A DNA stretch of 56,518 nucleotides from an uncultured Candidatus Saccharibacteria bacterium (GCA_964604085.1 CAZRXN010000001.1:1-56518), one strand, 5' to 3'; positions 2,229 through 36,281 are shown, numbered from the stretch's first letter. The notes: generated by a model not told the origin, from the sequence alone. A program made the numbers and translations.

Positions 2229-3453
2229 AAAAGTTGTGCCGGGACTCGGATATCTAGTATGGAAAAAAATTCCAGCGCAGTGTCTTGACGATCCATCGCT
2301 TGAGCTCGCACTCCGAAACGGAGATACGGAGTGTGAGTACGGGCGTCTCGTGGAAACCGCGCGCACCGACGTGCTCCATACGATAGAAGCACTGCGGGCA
2401 CGAAACATACGTCACGTGCGCACCGGCATTTCCTGGGCGGAGTGGTATCGGCCCGGTGGCCAGGCGTACGCAAAGTGGTACATACGAGCGTACAAGGACG
2501 CGGGGTTCCACATCCTCCCAACGCTCACATACACCCCTCCGGAGCTCGGCGTAGAGTCCGGGACGAATGCACCTCCGCGCGATCTGCGTACCTATGCGCA
2601 TTTTGTAGGAGAGGTATGCGATACCCTTCAAGACTGCTTCGATGAGGTGGAACTATGGAATGAGTGGAACTTGAACACCGACTGGGATCCCCAGTACGAT
2701 CCAGAGTACCGGATCTTCGCGGTCATGATAGGACTCGGCGCGTCCGCCGCACGCGCACGCGGGATGTCCGTGGTGCTCGGAGGCATGTCGAAGGTGAACG
2801 ACCGTACGCTCATCTTGCTGCGGACTCTGCTACGCACCGGAGTCGGCGGCTATCTAGACGCGATCGGCTTCCACAACCTGCGGGGCACATGGAGCGATCA
2901 TATTCCGCCACCGCCACTCGACGAACAGGGCAACCTCATCGAGGAGGAGTGGGCCGCGGCAGAGCGCGTGCGGCCGGACGATGTGGAATTCGAACAGGCG
3001 CTCTCGACGCTGAGCGAGCGGTCGGCTCCCAGGCTAGAGCGGCGTCGATCGCCGCACGGACATTACCTCACGGAGTACGGCTTCCCTCCTGTACCGTTCG
3101 GGACTCGTCGCTCCCAGCAGGAGCTCGAAGAAATACAAGTCGTCCTGTTTGCCGAAATGACTCGTCTCCTTTTGTCAGGACGCTTGAGCCGCGGTTACTG
3201 GTACACGCTTCGAGACAAGGTCTCTCCATCGGTGCGGTTTACGACGACAGGATGGGAAGACTGGCTGCAGTACTACTACGGCGACTCGCACGAGGACGGA
3301 TCACCAAAACTCCTCGGGTCATTGCTCCTCGAAGGGGGTCCCACGGCAGTTCTTTCCTACGTCGAAAAGCTCGGGCTTTGGCACCTCTTGGATGAGGCCT
3401 CCCTGAAACGAGATCCGCCGCCGGAGTACCACCTAACCCAGCAGCGCGTATAG
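2221..3453 (+). CDS. clan GH-A glycoside hydrolase-like protein, paralog of 1206..2228
   Basis: Start MHEKVVPG at 2221 overlaps the upstream stop by 8 nt. Motifs VELWNEWN and YLTEYGF align with the NEP and ETG motifs of the neighbour. The ORF part 1750..2220 is an out-of-context extension. Confidence 0.7.
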   Translation: MHEKVVPGLGYLVWKKIPAQCLDDPSLELALRNGDTECEYGRLVETARTDVLHTIEALRARNIRHVRTGISWAEWYRPGGQAYAKWYIRAYKDAGFHILPTLTYTPPELGVESGTNAPPRDLRTYAHFVGEVCDTLQDCFDEVELWNEWNLNTDWDPQYDPEYRIFAVMIGLGASAARARGMSVVLGGMSKVNDRTLILLRTLLRTGVGGYLDAIGFHNLRGTWSDHIPPPPLDEQGNLIEEEWAAAERVRPDDVEFEQALSTLSERSAPRLERRRSPHGHYLTEYGFPPVPFGTRRSQQELEEIQVVLFAEMTRLLLSGRLSRGYWYTLRDKVSPSVRFTTTGWEDWLQYYYGDSHEDGSPKLLGSLLLEGGPTAVLSYVEKLGLWHLLDEASLKRDPPPEYHLTQQRV

Positions 3454-3454
3454 C

Positions 3455-3486
3455 AAAACGCCCTCGCATCTGCGAGGGCGTTTTTC
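3455..3486. terminator. bidirectional rho-independent terminator
   Basis: AAAA-CGCCCTCGCA-tc-TGCGAGGGCG-TTTTT. Perfect 10-bp stem flanked by A and T runs, between convergent genes. Confidence 0.8.
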
Positions 3487-3496
3487 TCACACGGGG

Positions 3497-3892
3497 TTAG
3501 GATCGCTTCCGAGGCGTTTTCTTCGCGGTTCGCTTCTTTGTGGTTTTTGCGACACTGCGCCGCGTCTTCTGGAGCTCGCTCGTCAATTCCTGCCAGTGCT
3601 GCTTCAGTTCTTTAGCGGCGCGCAGGACATCCTCCTTGCTCGCACTCTTGGTTTGCTGGTACATCTTTGCCGCCTTGTCGATTGCGGCAAGCACCGAGGC
3701 CTTATCGATCTTTTTGAGTTCCCCTATTTCCCGCTCCGCGCTCTTCTTGAGATCGCCGGCCCACCGCGCGGCAGTCGCCCGGTGTTTCTTAGCGTCTTTG
3801 CTGAAGTAAAAATAGTAACTCGCAGCCGCTGCGGCCGCGCCTGCCGCGAGTCCCGCGCCGATCGCCGTTCGTTTCGTACTCTTCTTTGCCAT
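3497..3892 (-). CDS. hypothetical membrane-anchored, Lys/Ala-rich protein (YtxH-like appearance)
   Basis: N-terminal Gly/Ala-rich hydrophobic segment, then predicted helical, basic, low-complexity sequence. Confidence 0.6.
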   Translation of the reverse strand: MAKKSTKRTAIGAGLAAGAAAAAASYYFYFSKDAKKHRATAARWAGDLKKSAEREIGELKKIDKASVLAAIDKAAKMYQQTKSASKEDVLRAAKELKQHWQELTSELQKTRRSVAKTTKKRTAKKTPRKRS

Positions 3893-3955
3893 AGGATATT
3901 AAAATTCAGATAAAGCTATCACGAGTAATTACAACTGCTCCCCATGAATGCGCGA

Positions 3956-7956: not shown

Positions 7957-9163
7957 CCCCGACATGCTCGGGTCGCAGACCCATCCCGATTAAACGAGCC
8001 GGAATGCGGCGTAGTACGGGAAATCTCTGAAGGAGGCGGAGAGCGAAGGGCGGCGCTATCCCATCCGTATCTTCGAGCACGCGCCGAATCACCCGCTTTT
8101 GTATAAAAGACTGCACTACCTGGACGGCGCGTGCCGGAAGTCGCCGCCTCCTTTCCACCCGGTCGAGATCCGCCTCGGTTACGCGCTGTTCGAGAAGTGG
8201 CGCCGCGAGAATATTGGCGGCCGCAACGGCATCTTGTATCGCAAGGTTGATTCCGACTCCTCCAATCGGCGACATCGCATGCGCCGCGTCCCCGATGCAG
8301 AGGAGGCCAGGGACATGCCAGCGCTCAAGATGATCGATCGTAACGCGCAGAAGGTGTACCTTATCCCAGCTGTCCAATTCGCTCACGCGATTCGCGAGAA
8401 ACGGCGCTGCCTCGCGTACGCGTCCCTGGAAGCGCTCGAGCTCTTCCTTCTTCAAGTCCTCGTAGGCACCTTTCGCAATGACAAAACCGCACTGCCAATA
8501 CGTGTTGCGATCGATCAGGATCATCATGCGCCCCGAATCGGCGCGTCCGAGCGTGTGGGCGGGGTCGCCCTCTTTACGGGAGAGCGAAAACCATAGCACG
8601 TCGATGGGAGAATCTCCCTCCACTAGAGTAAGGCCGCTCTTTTCGCGCACCGTCGAGTGACGTCCATCGGCGCCGACCACGAGTGATGCTCGAATGTCGT
8701 ACACGCCCTCCGGTCCCTTCGCCCGAACGCCGACTACGCGTGCACCCTCGAAAATGAGGTCGACCGCCTCCGTTGCCATTGCGAGCATAAAGTGCGGATA
8801 CTGCGCCGCCTCCTGTGCGAGAAAATTGAGAAAGTCCCATTGGGGCATGAACGCGATGAATGGTGCGCGCACAGGCAAATGGGAGAAATCGGCGATCGTA
8901 ATTTGCTGCCCGCCGATAACGCCTTCAAGTTCATACGCCTTCTGGTGCGGGAGCGCTAGAAATTTCTCGAGCAATCCGAGCTCGTGCATAAGCTCCATGG
9001 TGGAAGGATGAATCGTGTCGCCGCGAAAATCTCGAAAAAAATCCGGCCACTTCTCAAGCACGATCACGCTAACCCCCGCGCGCGCGAGAAGATACCCGAG
9101 CATCATGCCTGCGGGTCCTCCTCCTGCGATACAGCAGCGTACCTCCTTCGGCGAGTCGGCCAT
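7895..9163 (-). CDS. FAD-dependent monooxygenase (UbiH/PHBH-type)
   Basis: N-terminal Rossmann motif CCIAGGGPAGMMLGYLLARAG, plus GDAAH and GGVGINLAIQDA motifs. The 3' end overlaps the convergent sortase gene by 62 nt. Confidence 0.8.
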   Translation of the reverse strand: MADSPKEVRCCIAGGGPAGMMLGYLLARAGVSVIVLEKWPDFFRDFRGDTIHPSTMELMHELGLLEKFLALPHQKAYELEGVIGGQQITIADFSHLPVRAPFIAFMPQWDFLNFLAQEAAQYPHFMLAMATEAVDLIFEGARVVGVRAKGPEGVYDIRASLVVGADGRHSTVREKSGLTLVEGDSPIDVLWFSLSRKEGDPAHTLGRADSGRMMILIDRNTYWQCGFVIAKGAYEDLKKEELERFQGRVREAAPFLANRVSELDSWDKVHLLRVTIDHLERWHVPGLLCIGDAAHAMSPIGGVGINLAIQDAVAAANILAAPLLEQRVTEADLDRVERRRRLPARAVQVVQSFIQKRVIRRVLEDTDGIAPPFALRLLQRFPVLRRIPARLIGMGLRPEHVGVIPLGLRTRRGDDRRSSDQP

Positions 9164-27159: not shown

Positions 27160-27243
27160 GCGTCGGTGGCGGAGTGGTCAATCGCACGTGGCTGTAGACC
27201 ACGCGGGCTTTGCCCTACGGGGGTTCGAATCCCTCCCGGCGCA
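27160..27243 (+). tRNA. tRNA-Tyr (GTA), class II with a long variable arm
   Basis: Acceptor GCGTCGG/CCGGCGC (one G-U pair), anticodon stem CGTGG/CCACG with loop CTGTAGA, variable arm CGGGCTTTGCCCTAC, T-arm GGGGG-TTCGAAT-CCCTC, discriminator A. Confidence 0.9.
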
Positions 27244-27297
27244 CACAATGTAAAATGGCGGCCCCTGCGGTCGCCATTTTGCATTGGGAGCAGGATT
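27225..27297 (+). repeat. direct repeat copy A (tRNA-Tyr T-loop to 3' end plus downstream terminator)
   Basis: 73 nt beginning TCGAATCCCTCCCGGCGCACACAATG... It matches 27370..27442 with 4 mismatches. Confidence 0.9.
27252..27280 (+). terminator. tRNA-Tyr terminator hairpin
   Basis: AAAATGGCGGCC-CCTGC-GGTCGCCATTTT, flanked by A and T runs. A second copy lies at about 27397..27425. Confidence 0.75.
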
Positions 27298-27369
27298 CGA
27301 ACGGGCGGAGCCGAAGGCGAGCCAGGGCAGTGACCACTTAACGAGCGCAGCGAGTTTAGTGAGTCACGC
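27298..27369 (+). other. 72-bp structured insert between the two repeat copies (candidate miniature integrative element or RNA)
   Basis: Contains hairpin 27330..27367: GTGAC-CACTTAAC ... GTTTAGTG-A-GTCAC. Homologous in sequence and structure to 35174..35340 downstream of tRNA-Cys. Confidence 0.5.
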
Positions 27370-27442
27370 TCGAATCCCTCCCGGCGCACACAATGCGAAA
27401 TGGCGGCCCCTGCGGTCGCCATTTTACATTGGGAGCAGAATT
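27370..27442 (+). repeat. direct repeat copy B (orphan tRNA-Tyr 3' segment plus terminator copy)
   Basis: Begins TCGAATCCCTCCCGGCGCACACAATGCGAAATGG... There is no tRNA 5' part upstream of it. Confidence 0.9.
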
Positions 27443-34704: not shown

Positions 34705-35018
34705 GCCGCCGCACCGATCAGGTCTCGCAGGAGCTCGCCCAGCACGCGGGCACTTTTCTCTCGCTGAAGTCGAGCCACACATCGCTCATTACGGTTACCC
34801 GCGCGGACGTATCGCCCGATCTGCGCTCCGCTACGATTTACCTATCCGTGCTGCCAGAGCCGCAAGAGAGCGCCGCGCTCGATTTCGCAAAACGCCAGCG
34901 TGGGCCCTTCCGCGAATACTTGAAAGGGCACGCTCGTCTCAAATACGTTCCGACAGTTGATTTTCTCATCGACGGGGGCGAGAAGAATCGACAGCGCATC
35001 GATGAACTCACGCGATAG
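34701..35018 (+). CDS. rbfA: ribosome-binding factor A
   Basis: ATGA start/stop overlap with infB. LITVTRADVSPDLRSATIYLSV is a typical RbfA segment. Confidence 0.85.
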   Translation: MSRRTDQVSQELAQHAGTFLSLKSSHTSLITVTRADVSPDLRSATIYLSVLPEPQESAALDFAKRQRGPFREYLKGHARLKYVPTVDFLIDGGEKNRQRIDELTR

Positions 35019-35051
35019 TATATACTATAGTATATACTATGGTATATACTA
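35016..35051. repeat. three tandem 12-bp palindromic units (TAGTATATACTA x2 plus TGGTATATACTA), locus 2
   Basis: Read directly from the sequence. The first unit starts with the rbfA TAG stop codon. Confidence 0.95.
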
Positions 35052-35098
35052 TTCCCCGCCCCTCAAGCGCCGGGCGAACGTGGTATATTTGGGGTCTT

Positions 35099-35173
35099 GG
35101 CCCGATGGTGAAGGGGTAACACGGCGGTCTGCAAAACCGCTACGCGCGGGTTCGAGTCCCGCTCGGGCCTCCA
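35099..35173 (+). tRNA. tRNA-Cys (GCA) with encoded CCA
   Basis: Acceptor GGCCCGA/TCGGGCC, anticodon stem GCGGT/ACCGC with loop CTGCAAA, T-arm GCGGG-TTCGAGT-CCCGC, discriminator T (U73, as expected for Cys). Confidence 0.9.
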
Positions 35174-35340
35174 GACCGAGAGAATCGTGCGTTTGCACGA
35201 TTCGTCCGGACTCGAAAGGCGCAGCGATGTCGCGAGCTTGCGAGCGACCGCGAGCCCGGGCAGCCTGCCTGCCGGTAGGCAGGGAGCCACTTAGCGAATC
35301 GGAGCGCCGGGCGCGAACGATGAGCTTAGTGAGCTGACGC
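35174..35340 (+). other. about 167-bp structured insert downstream of tRNA-Cys, homologous to the tRNA-Tyr insert
   Basis: Hairpins GAATCGTGC-GTTT-GCACGATTC and CCTGCC...GGCAGG. Three GCGAGC copies. Terminal hairpin 35285..35335: AGC-CACTTAGC ... GCTTAGTG-A-GCT. Confidence 0.5.
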
Positions 35341-35358
35341 CGAGTCCCGCTCGGGCCT
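35341..35358 (+). repeat. orphan direct repeat of the tRNA-Cys T-loop-to-discriminator segment
   Basis: CGAGTCCCGCTCGGGCCT is identical to 35153..35170 inside tRNA-Cys. Confidence 0.85.
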
Positions 35359-35405
35359 TCCTCTAGTGCTTGTATGAGTGGCTCTCTCGCTGCTAGAGTG
35401 ATGCT

Positions 35406-36281
35406 ATGGCAGCAATAACAAAGGTCATCATCCCCGTCGCCGGATCAGGCACGCGCTTCCTCCCCGCCACCAAGGCGCAGCCGAAGGAGATGCTGCCTGT
35501 GATCGATAAGCCGGTCATCCAGTACCTGGTAGAGGAAGTCGTACAGGCAGGCGTTACCGACATTATTTTTGTCACAGGACGCAATAAGCGCGCGATCGAA
35601 GATCACTTCGACGCCTCGCCCGAGCTCGAAGCGCAGCTGGAGGAGCGCGGCAAGAGCGAACTGTTGAAGACCGTTCAGGACGTGTCCGAGCTCGCGCGCT
35701 TCTCATTCGTCCGGCAACGATTCCCGCTCGGGGACGGTGACGCGATCCTTTGCGCAGAGCACCTCGTCGGCAAGGACGAGCCCGTCGGTGTCATGTTCGG
35801 CGACGATATTTTCGTCGGGCCTGCTCCCCGACTCACCCAGATCGGAAGAGTATTTGTGGAGCGCGGAGGCGTCGTCGCCGCGCTCGAGCGGGTTCCGCAA
35901 GCGGAAGTGAGCCGCTACGGCGTCGTGGGCGGAGAGCAAGGAGAAGGGGGCATTCTCGATATCAAGACGATCGTCGAAAAGCCCGCTGTGAATGATGCGC
36001 CGTCGGACCTGATTCTTATGGGAACTTACATAATCAACGGAGGAGTCTTTAAGGAATTACGCACACTGAAGGATCGGTCGACGGAGGGCGAGATCCGATT
36101 GGCGGATGCGCTGAAGGCGTACGCAGCGCACGATCCCGTCTACGGACTCACCATGGAGGGCAAACGCTATGACTGCGGCGATAAGCTCGGCTACTTAAAG
36201 ACGACGGTGGATTTCGCCCTTATGCATCCGGAGTTCAAAGACGAGTTCCGCGCGTACTTGCGAGAAGTGCTCGGCGAGTAA
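35406..36281 (+). CDS. galU: UTP--glucose-1-phosphate uridylyltransferase
   Basis: KVIIPVAGSGTRFLPATKAQPKEMLPVIDKP is the canonical GalU N-terminus. Confidence 0.9.
   Translation: MAAITKVIIPVAGSGTRFLPATKAQPKEMLPVIDKPVIQYLVEEVVQAGVTDIIFVTGRNKRAIEDHFDASPELEAQLEERGKSELLKTVQDVSELARFSFVRQRFPLGDGDAILCAEHLVGKDEPVGVMFGDDIFVGPAPRLTQIGRVFVERGGVVAALERVPQAEVSRYGVVGGEQGEGGILDIKTIVEKPAVNDAPSDLILMGTYIINGGVFKELRTLKDRSTEGEIRLADALKAYAAHDPVYGLTMEGKRYDCGDKLGYLKTTVDFALMHPEFKDEFRAYLREVLGE

Follow-up and report, generated by a model that had tools for sequence, protein, structure and literature searches.

Small structured elements at the 3′ ends of Patescibacteria tRNA genes carry arms that match the adjoining tRNA

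Among the sites at which genetic elements enter transfer RNA (tRNA) genes, Williams is said to have distinguished, in 2002, a 'T-loop sublocation' class. Mycobacteriophage Ms6 integrates in the T-loop of a tRNA-Ala gene (PMC1762012). Here, we describe an element that follows the tRNA-Cys gene in a 56,518-nucleotide (nt) stretch of DNA from an uncultured Candidatus Saccharibacteria bacterium (GCA_964604085.1, CAZRXN010000001.1:1-56518), referred to throughout as the window. The element belongs to a previously uncatalogued family of small non-coding elements at tRNA 3′ ends, in Patescibacteria of the Kaiserbacteria/Spechtbacterales type. Repeat boundaries at tRNA nt 55/56 and 73/74, an intact tRNA, tandem stacking and distal decay match the signature of T-loop integration known from Ms6 (PMC1762012). 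Copies have four parts: a 5′ arm that is an inverted copy of tRNA sequence, a conserved core of helices P2 and P3, a junction fixed as ...ACGC or ...TGAC, and a 3′ arm that directly repeats tRNA nt 55/56 to 73/74. When the tRNA-sense strand folds, the two arms form a long helix, P1, and so close a three-way junction. We tentatively read the family as a non-autonomous, structured insertion element that targets tRNA genes and is mobilised in trans, an account to which we give a little less than an even chance.

The tRNA-Cys(GCA) gene of the window is intact, with its CCA encoded (35099..35173, plus strand; ARAGORN; Rfam tRNA, 63 bits). Its segment from T-loop C56 to discriminator U73 is the 18-mer CGAGTCCCGCTCGGGCCT. 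This sequence occurs exactly at 35153-35170, inside the tRNA, and at 35341-35358 only. No further match was found in the window even with 3 mismatches allowed; two such loose matches were reached by 1 of 100 shuffles. The second copy follows at once upon GAGCTTAGTGAGCTGACGC (35322-35340). Hence, the initial annotation had placed both the 18-nt repeat and the preceding hairpin exactly. The other details that it listed, namely two extra hairpins, three GCGAGC repeats and galU following, are likewise present.

The 167 nt between the two copies of CGAGTCCCGCTCGGGCCT are homologous to an insert behind tRNA-Tyr, elsewhere in the window. The layout of the tRNA-Tyr locus is the same, as had been proposed: a tRNA, a 73-nt repeat, and TTAGTGAGTCACGC closing the insert directly before the second repeat copy. 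By pairwise blastn, the Cys and Tyr inserts share short collinear blocks only. Covariance model R2 (alignment A4) was built from 10 copies in other genomes and none from the window. Across the 56.5-kb window, R2 identified 27291-27390 (78 bits, E value 4e-20) and 35206-35360 (58 bits, E value 2e-14); the sole further match was the T-arm of tRNA-Tyr itself (E value 0.007). Since this leave-out model finds both loci, the Cys and Tyr inserts are homologous. One element type is thus associated with two different tRNAs, as first suspected, and the similarity of the inserts is far above that expected of GC-rich background.

Searches with DNA patterns and covariance models identified ~17 copies in at least nine Patescibacteria genomes (loci outside the window are given by handles of the form L001). 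The genome collection contained four true copies, behind tRNA-Gln and tRNA-Glu of one Spechtbacterales genome and behind tRNA-Tyr of two other Patescibacteria. From the metagenome collection came one partial tRNA-Tyr copy and one tRNA-Tyr locus with two tandem units. Contigs of GalU relatives yielded Tyr (L001/L002, L105, L123) and Leu (L105, L107, L099) copies. By host gene, the copies lie behind tRNA-Tyr in the window, L001/L002, L008, L012, L095, L099 (two), L105 and L123; behind tRNA-Cys (window), tRNA-Gln (L007) and tRNA-Glu (L013); and behind tRNA-Leu with anticodons CAA (L099), TAA (L105, L107) and TAG (L105). All are on the tRNA strand and lengths range from ~100 to 190 nt. Up to half of the tRNA genes in the sampled stretches are occupied, and tRNA-Tyr is occupied in 8 of the 9 genomes where the locus could be examined. 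The cores of the Gln and Glu copies, which share a genome, are ~88% identical.

The family is absent from the catalogues that we consulted. At the gathering threshold, the only matches to Rfam 15 in the window are 8 tRNAs. With E values up to 10 allowed, the two loci give only tRNA-derived or spurious weak Rfam matches. Pattern scans of IMG/VR viral contigs returned no true copy, and a search of the published literature found no description of such an element.

The 5′ part of the element contains an inverted copy of the tRNA; neither this nor the Patescibacteria-wide spread had been noticed in the initial annotation. In every copy, the 5′ arm is the reverse complement of the 3′ strand of the adjoining tRNA, from T-loop to acceptor, and varies with that tRNA. 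The left-arm motif is GGATTCGAA in Tyr and Gln copies, GGACTCGAA in Cys and Leu(TAA) copies, and GGGATTTGAA in the Glu copy. The arms read GGGATTCGAA with Tyr and Gln, and GG(G)ACTCGAA with Cys and Leu(TAA). In the Glu element, GGGATTTGAA matches the Glu T-loop TTCAAATCC, and the run to tRNA-Glu is 12 nt long, compared with 6 nt or fewer to other tRNAs. Reverse-complement runs of 8-13 nt to the element's own tRNA occur in 12 of 13 copies. The exception is L105 Leu(TAG), where the T-loop part has one mismatch and the longest exact run is 6 nt. Complementarity often continues through the 3′ strands of the T-stem and acceptor. For instance, the L008 left arm is TCAGCCAGGAGGGATTCGAA and the reverse complement of its tRNA is TGCGCCGGGAGGGATTCGAA, while the left arm of L105 Leu(TAA) is a 21/21 inverted tRNA copy, split by a tetraloop hairpin.

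The right arm is a direct tRNA copy. In all complete copies examined the repeat runs from T-loop nt 55/56 to nt 73/74, which bears out the proposal that the junction lies at an equivalent T-loop site in different tRNAs. Right arms are identical to the tRNA at 18-20 of 18-20 positions in 9 of 13 copies. The expectation that insert and repeat persist together therefore held only in part: in L008, L099b, L105-Tyr and L105-Leu(TAA) the 3′ repeat has diverged from the tRNA and the insert is still present. Copies with a right arm identical to their tRNA are thus the young ones, and an element can persist without such identity. In L008, the right arm has changed from CCCGG to CCTGG and the left arm carries the matching change. 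Between the arms, the core consensus consists of P2 with a GGA/GA internal loop, a joining segment (N)GGG(C/T)(A/C)G, and P3 with the base CCAYUUAG/CUUAGUG, followed by ACGC or, in a third subtype, CTGAC.

The predicted fold is backed by covariation. The sample is 10 to 16 sequences, few and related, with alignments fitted to the model; in that sample, compensatory changes exceed controls and the strands are asymmetric, as is generally looked for in conserved structured RNA. With 10 sequences, pairing holds in 97.4% of cells, and both sides have changed in 13 of the 30 pairs. None of 500 shuffles reached that level and slid controls were 20-41% paired. Among the pairs counted with 16 sequences, 354 are Watson-Crick, 14 are G.U and just 3 are A.C. 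This excess of G.U over A.C indicates that it is the tRNA-sense strand that folds. The Cys copy has a fold z-score of -4.7 (-3.0 on its opposite strand) and the Tyr copy one of -4.8. In their minimum-free-energy folds, the two window copies are each closed end to end, from the first element nucleotide to the last.

All parts of the Cys copy are on the plus strand. Its left arm begins straight after the CCA of the tRNA and has the split layout of L105 Leu(TAA). The distal section, GACCGAG (35174..35180), is the complement of CUCGG(G)C in the 3′ fragment; the minimum-free-energy fold has it paired. A stable tetraloop hairpin, GAATCGTGC-GTTT-GCACGATTC (35182..35203 in the fold), then interrupts the arm at the equivalent of the acceptor/T-stem boundary. 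This 'extra hairpin' of the initial annotation is an insertion inside the 5′ arm, not a terminator. Hairpins occupy the equivalent place in L105 (three copies), L107 and L123, with a compensatory change between L105 and L107. The proximal section, CCGGACTCGAA (35206..35216), is the 5′ strand of P1, as indicated by its reverse-complement run and by covariation at P1 columns. Within the left arm, GGACTCGAA is the reverse complement of the tRNA-Cys T-loop TTCGAGTCC, an exact run of 9 nt that is specific to the tRNA type.

Helix P2 (35218..35256; alignments A1-A4 and covariation) has a GGC/GCC closing stem, a conserved GNA/GA internal loop and a variable tip. The three GCGAGC repeats, at 35232-37, 35240-45 and 35250-55 in the tip, are strands of this helix. 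The conserved joining segment CGGGCAG follows (35257..35263; RNAalifold consensus). Its GGC can pair with GCC at the junction of core and fragment to form a short helix, P1b (RNAalifold), the first two pairs of which are GC or GU in 10 of 10 sequences. Next is a GC-rich palindrome, CCTGCCTGCCGGTAGGCAGG (CCTGCC...GGCAGG; 35264..35283), that is specific to the Cys copy and corresponds to a gap in alignments A1-A3. A similar CCTGCC..GGCAGG-type palindrome occurs at another position, in the L099b right arm; such palindromes may be a separate mini-insertion sequence. Helix P3 (35284..35335; covariation) has the base GAGCCACUUAG...CUUAGUG-A-GCU, a U.U mismatch, a bulged A and a variable hairpin tip. 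Eight of the 14 P3 pairs have changed on both sides and 100% of cells are paired. The conserved junction GACGC (35336..35340; alignment) lies immediately 5′ of the tRNA fragment. ACGC is invariant in 10/10 copies of alignment A2; subtype 3 has CTGAC or TTGAC, and L099a has TTGAC. The right arm (35341..35358), which is tRNA-Cys nt 56-73 by the repeat match (18/18 identical) and lacks CCA, is the 3′ strand of P1 in the fold.

The sister locus has an intact tRNA-Tyr(GTA) at 27160..27244 (plus strand, as are its other parts; ARAGORN; Rfam). A trailer with a terminator-like hairpin, AAAATGGCGGCC-CCTGC-GGTCGCCATTTT (27245..27283), separates tRNA and element, and is homologous to the trailer before L099 unit b. 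The left arm TTGGGAGCAGGATTCGAA (27284..27301) is an inverted copy of tRNA-Tyr from nt 54 to about nt 69, with a 2-nt bulge, according to the fold and the reverse-complement run. The core (27303..27369; leave-out covariance model) consists of P2 (27303-23), AGGGCAG (27324-30), P3 (27331-66) and CGC (27367-69). In the right arm region (27370..27442), a stretch identical to tRNA-Tyr nt 55-74 (27370-89) is followed by a second trailer and terminator. The direct repeat of 73 nt, 27225-27297 compared with 27370-27442, is 95% identical and spans T-loop, 3′ end and terminator-like hairpin. The distal repeat keeps the first 12 nt of the left arm (GGGAGCAGAATT) and then stops. Judged by sequence, the tail at 27370-27442 looks like a truncated second unit. 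L123 has a similar break (..GAGGGATT|TTATGC) after its distal terminator. A mini-hairpin, GAGCG-N-AGCGA(AGG), with a C-GNA-G triloop flanked by G/A, is found at 27343-27354 in the window, in the P2 tips of L007 and L013, in the P3 tip of L002 and in spacers of L105 and L107. This module recurs at differing positions, as though it were exchangeable.

Comparison with relatives shows both empty and filled sites, between species only. GalU of the window, which comes from a Kaiserbacteria-like bacterium, shares 80% identity with the protein of a Candidatus Kaiserbacteria genome; the remaining GalU relatives belong to Parcubacteria/Patescibacteria. In four relatives (L001/L002, L105, L107 and L123), tRNA-Cys stands directly before galU with no insert. 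The spacer between tRNA-Cys and galU is 42 nt in L001, compared with 47 nt after the second repeat copy in the window. The tRNA-Cys site is filled in only one of six relatives' loci, and the tRNA-Tyr site of L107 is empty. At the tRNA-Tyr gene of L099, where units are in tandem, the middle fragment is intact and the most distal is the most decayed or disrupted. Core subtypes differ at tRNA-Tyr of related genomes, and modules such as P2 are common across subtypes. As in integrative elements that use the T-loop of tRNA genes, a direct repeat reconstitutes the tRNA (18 of 18 nt at Cys, 73 nt at Tyr). Conversely, miniature inverted-repeat transposable elements (MITEs) are a poor match, since the arm sequence is that of the adjoining tRNA and differs per copy, and the duplication is 18-20 nt or more.

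No recombinase accompanies the elements in the regions scanned. Neither an integrase, a transposase nor a reverse transcriptase was found among the ~40 open reading frames (ORFs) of the window (Pfam, PHROGs), and none of these classes was found beside the other copies (Pfam/PHROGs scans, gene tables). The 185-nt Cys element itself contains no ORF. An autonomous parent was not found: IMG/VR gave no true copy, and the genome and metagenome scans, which did not extend to whole genomes, gave only small copies. With galU and its promoter-like box following immediately, the view that no large island is attached is sustained.

The L099 locus (8246-8648, minus strand; the same as L101 850-1252) has its two tandem units behind a single tRNA-Tyr. 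The proximal unit has a different P3, lacks TTAGTGAG and ends ...GCGCTTGAC; its deviant P3 indicates that the family is broader than the search patterns used. The distal tRNA fragment is split by a GC palindrome. L002 (331-2843, minus strand; GCA_002773285.1, PFBM01000021.1) contains a second set of these parts (terminator, element, fragment), slightly different, at a distance of 2.3 kb from the copy behind tRNA-Tyr and preceded by a degenerate tRNA-3′-like stretch, AAAGTTCGAACCCTGTCCCGTTGCGGGGCAC. Between the two copies are HicA, HicB and a 226-aa ORF without a family match, and N-gaps follow both. Two readings of the segment are possible: an island or plasmid of small size that integrated by way of the element, or an artefact of assembly. 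In L007, an AbiTii abortive-infection gene (3145-3894; Pfam E value 7e-47) lies 1.3 kb downstream of the tRNA-Gln copy; none was seen near other copies.

Other features concern the tRNA loci themselves. In L004/L006, tRNA-Cys is inverted (minus strand). Single tRNA genes are flipped in place between relatives, with tRNA-Lys on either strand, and tRNA-Tyr is co-oriented with clpB in L001 and L105, whereas the two genes converge in the window, L107 and L123. A free-standing LAGLIDADG endonuclease gene (L107 9224-9883; Pfam PF14528, 34.8 bits; PHROG endonuclease, E value 2e-29) lies between rbfA and tRNA-Cys, at the locus of the window's element. The tRNA-Cys genes of L001 (7236-7310) and L107 (9877-9952) have a non-canonical T-loop, TGCAATT or TGCAACT, with G55, and a D-loop without the GG pair. 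The T-loop is the canonical TTCGAGT in tRNA-Cys of the window, L004 and L105; both non-canonical genes are free of the element.

Around the Cys element, consensus scans of the locus found no promoter and no terminator. Downstream, a putative extended −10-like box of galU, TGCTAGAGT (35391..35399, plus strand), can be read outside the element and would have stayed intact after insertion. It ends 6 nt before the ATG of galU (35406-36281; ATG at 35406), and the L001 equivalent, TGATAGAGT, is in the same place. This arrangement, read from the sequence, suggests that the galU mRNA may be leaderless or have a very short leader. Upstream, the 12-nt unit ATAGTATATACT is present as 3.2 tandem repeats (35015-35052; 96% match) that are very AT-rich compared with the 59% GC of the window. 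The repeats span the rbfA stop codon, just upstream of a −10-like TGGTATATT of tRNA-Cys, and may be stacked promoter or UP-like boxes. Housekeeping genes of the window are topA, dprA, serS, relA, parB, miaA, clpB, infB, rbfA, galU, gyrA and pth.

We infer that the element is mobile and non-autonomous. In the mechanism that we favour, it would enter at, or directly behind, the segment of a tRNA gene from T-loop to 3′ end, in a site-specific event probably catalysed in trans. The tRNA would be left intact and its T-loop-to-3′-end segment duplicated, following the attL/attR-like logic of T-loop-targeting integrases. Successive insertions would stack, and old distal fragments would decay. The conserved fold may be needed for a single-stranded intermediate, or as RNA read through from the tRNA; it would also sequester the orphan tRNA fragment in a duplex. 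Two descriptions of the mobile unit are possible, and the hints from different loci conflict. A unit of 3′ end, trailer, left arm and core might enter the T-loop, as the L099 locus, and the trailer and left arm common to the window Tyr copy and L099b, would favour. Alternatively, a hairpin of left arm, core and right arm might be set 0-60 nt behind the tRNA. The latter is favoured by the window Cys copy, which starts right after the CCA and has a right arm lacking the CCA that relatives encode.

Several observations weigh against the reading as a mobile element. A recombinase is linked to no copy, and the IMG/VR scans for an autonomous parent were negative. The inverted target copy, and the re-specification of arms for each tRNA, are unexplained by ordinary integrase att logic. 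At L105 Leu(TAA) the left arm is the full inverted tRNA copy and the right arm has diverged, which implies that arms can track the tRNA rather than each other. The CCA missing from the window Cys right arm is encoded by tRNA-Cys of L001, L105 and L107; hence, a hairpin placed just after the CCA fits better than insertion into the T-loop. RNA-like covariation with G.U pairs fits a functional RNA gene equally well. Differences in presence were seen between species only, never within a population. The sample comprises ~17 copies, and the alignments behind the pair counts are fitted to the model.

As the main alternative, the elements could be a host family of non-coding RNAs, linked to tRNAs and either cotranscribed or read through, whose closing helix mimics an acceptor/T-arm minihelix. 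We regard this as possible, if on the unlikely side. Enzymes of tRNA processing (RNase P, RNase Z, the CCA-adding enzyme), possibly with the cognate synthetase, would handle the RNA, and the P2/P3 core would be functional. A conserved three-way junction with compensatory changes and strand-specific G.U pairs is what such a gene should show, as is confinement to the tRNA strand. P1 ends in a discriminator and C74, as does a tRNA gene, with a full CCA after the right arm in L001 and L013, and the hairpin that splits the left arm occupies the point from which the D and anticodon arms would branch off in a tRNA. The Cys and Leu loci have no terminator between tRNA and element, and terminator-like hairpins follow the right arm, but the Tyr loci do have a terminator-like hairpin between the two and consensus scans did not find a promoter-like site. 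Likewise, although tRNA-Tyr carries a copy in nearly all examinable genomes, presence elsewhere is patchy (tRNA-Cys, one in six), and tandem or truncated copies and decayed arms are hallmarks of selfish repeats. The tRNA model gives the element no score, Rfam is silent, and copying explains exact identity to the neighbouring tRNA better than convergent constraint does. Something more unusual is unlikely but has a real chance: an RNA, rather than a scar, that mimics a tRNA or presents a tRNA fragment, or else an element whose arms are copied from its target. In its RNA version, it is conceivable that the core and antisense arm present an exact spare copy of the tRNA segment from T-loop to discriminator. 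Conceivably, the RNA is processed into a mimic of the tRNA minihelix, which receives a CCA and perhaps an amino acid from the cognate synthetase; or it serves as a decoy or sponge that draws off enzymes, toxins or integrases directed at the 3′ half of that tRNA; or it is a cassette whose core releases the fragment at the fixed ACGC|C56 junction for repair of tRNAs cut in the T-loop. Possibly, arms are instead rewritten from the target tRNA during transposition; we know of no described precedent for such target-copying mobility, and found none.

That the fold matters as single-stranded DNA is possible but improbable. Here, the arms would rebuild the T-loop/acceptor duplex of the tRNA as an attP, and a tyrosine recombinase of the host or a helper would exchange it with the tRNA gene. 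Inverted and direct target copies ~70-130 nt apart beside one junction correspond exactly to the layout of integrated CTX-phi; the bulged base and conserved mismatch of P3 recall the extrahelical bases of attC; and it is the tRNA-sense strand that folds. Many tips are triloops of the C-GNA-G type (GCGAAGC, GCGTAGC, GCGCAGC), a structure of exceptional stability in DNA. However, no recombinase is linked, IMG/VR scans revealed no element-bearing replicon, and nothing would allow a 190-260-nt circle to replicate. Neither the conserved P2 loop nor the conserved joining nucleotides would have a role, and G.U (G.T) pairs are less tolerated in DNA. The elements might also be dead scars, the attL and attR of ordinary large prophages or islands in tRNA genes after deletion of the interior. 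A direct repeat of the tRNA 3′ part from the T-loop is the classical scar, and distal fragments do decay. Yet ~17 deletions, each independent, would have had to stop at identical boundaries and spare the same 100-190 nt; the interior, with its compensatory changes, is conserved from order to order; and the left arm follows the tRNA type. We therefore judge this very improbable; plain scars of large islands are, like chance similarity, essentially excluded. Least credible, to the point of being barely worth entertaining, is local replication slippage or tandem duplication of tRNA 3′ ends with chance similarity of GC-rich spacers. The tRNA-Tyr locus does resemble a 145-bp tandem duplication, but the E values of the leave-out model (2e-14, 4e-20), and a core that recurs in other orders behind tRNAs of five amino acids, are incompatible with chance.

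Known RNA and DNA classes were also considered and rejected. ARAGORN detected no tmRNA (transfer-messenger RNA) or permuted tmRNA, and an 'ANDE...' reading frame of the Cys copy contains in-frame stops and lacks conservation in other copies. A hammerhead or other known self-cleaving ribozyme would need joining segments of a different order and length (CUGANGA/GAA/H), and Rfam gave no match. The CUGA within GCUGACGC raised the possibility of a kink-turn or box C/D motif, but subtype 1 has no CUGA, and a P2 loop of 3 nt facing 2 nt falls short of a kink-turn. TIGR-Tas dual-spacer guides are 36-nt box C/D guide arrays of unrelated architecture (PMC12045711). A tRNA paralogue with a T-loop insertion is contradicted by the Tyr left arm, where GAGGG complements the 3′ strand CCCTC and is not the 5′ strand GGGGG of the tRNA; the acceptor part of L008 also follows the 3′ strand, and the tRNA model does not score the element. 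A phage or plasmid origin was set aside, as IMG/VR scans contained no copy. A preference for tRNAs of class I synthetases, prompted by the hosts Tyr, Cys, Gln, Glu and Leu, is not significant, given that class I accounts for almost every tRNA at the loci sampled.

The genomes of candidate-phyla bacteria are tiny, and few mobile elements or non-coding RNAs have been recognised in them. To these we add a family that is new to Rfam, with a fold supported by covariation and ends copied, inverted and direct, from whichever tRNA precedes it. If mobile, the family would be a minimal tRNA-targeting insertion element with target recognition apparently written in its own arms. Which trans-acting enzyme moves the element, and how the arms are re-specified, then become questions. 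If the elements act as RNA, they would form a new class of tRNA-mimicking RNAs. There is also a practical consequence: orphan tRNA 3′ fragments and repeats break assemblies at tRNA loci, as at the contig ends of L001 and L003 and the N-gaps of L002, and the element could be mistaken for the boundary of a genomic island.

Among known systems, the tRNA-like domain of tmRNA, YrlA and mascRNA share with the family an acceptor/T-arm-like helix that ends in a discriminator (with C74 or CCA) and tRNA-type processing signals. Unlike these RNAs, the element obtains no score with tRNA, tmRNA, YrlA or mascRNA models, its T-loop is fully paired and opened into a three-way junction, and its sequence comes from the adjoining tRNA. 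The cis-mobilisable elements (CIMEs) of Streptococcus integrative and conjugative elements, and MITE-like repeats (Correia/NEMIS, RUP and BOX), are similarly small, non-coding, multi-copy, patchy and presumably mobilised in trans, with long hairpins. In contrast to those repeats, the family has inverted repeats that copy the neighbouring tRNA, strict linkage to and orientation with tRNA genes, and no known parent. The attP(+) of CTX-phi and integron attC sites have inverted target copies that rebuild a duplex, and an imperfect hairpin with bulge, mismatch and variable tip. In the family, P1 rebuilds the T-loop/acceptor duplex, and P3 is interrupted by a bulged A and a U.U mismatch; an R-box consensus was not visible by eye (no pattern search was made), and no IntI or Xer gene was found linked to copies. 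The target of the family is a tRNA gene, rather than dif or attI, and there is an extra conserved side helix, P2. Elements with T-loop tyrosine integrases share the repeat from T-loop to tRNA 3′ end, the intact tRNA, the displaced 3′ fragment downstream and tandem stacking with distal decay. What sets the family apart from them is its small size, 100-190 nt without integrase or cargo, its RNA-like core, and an inverted copy of the target that depends on the tRNA.

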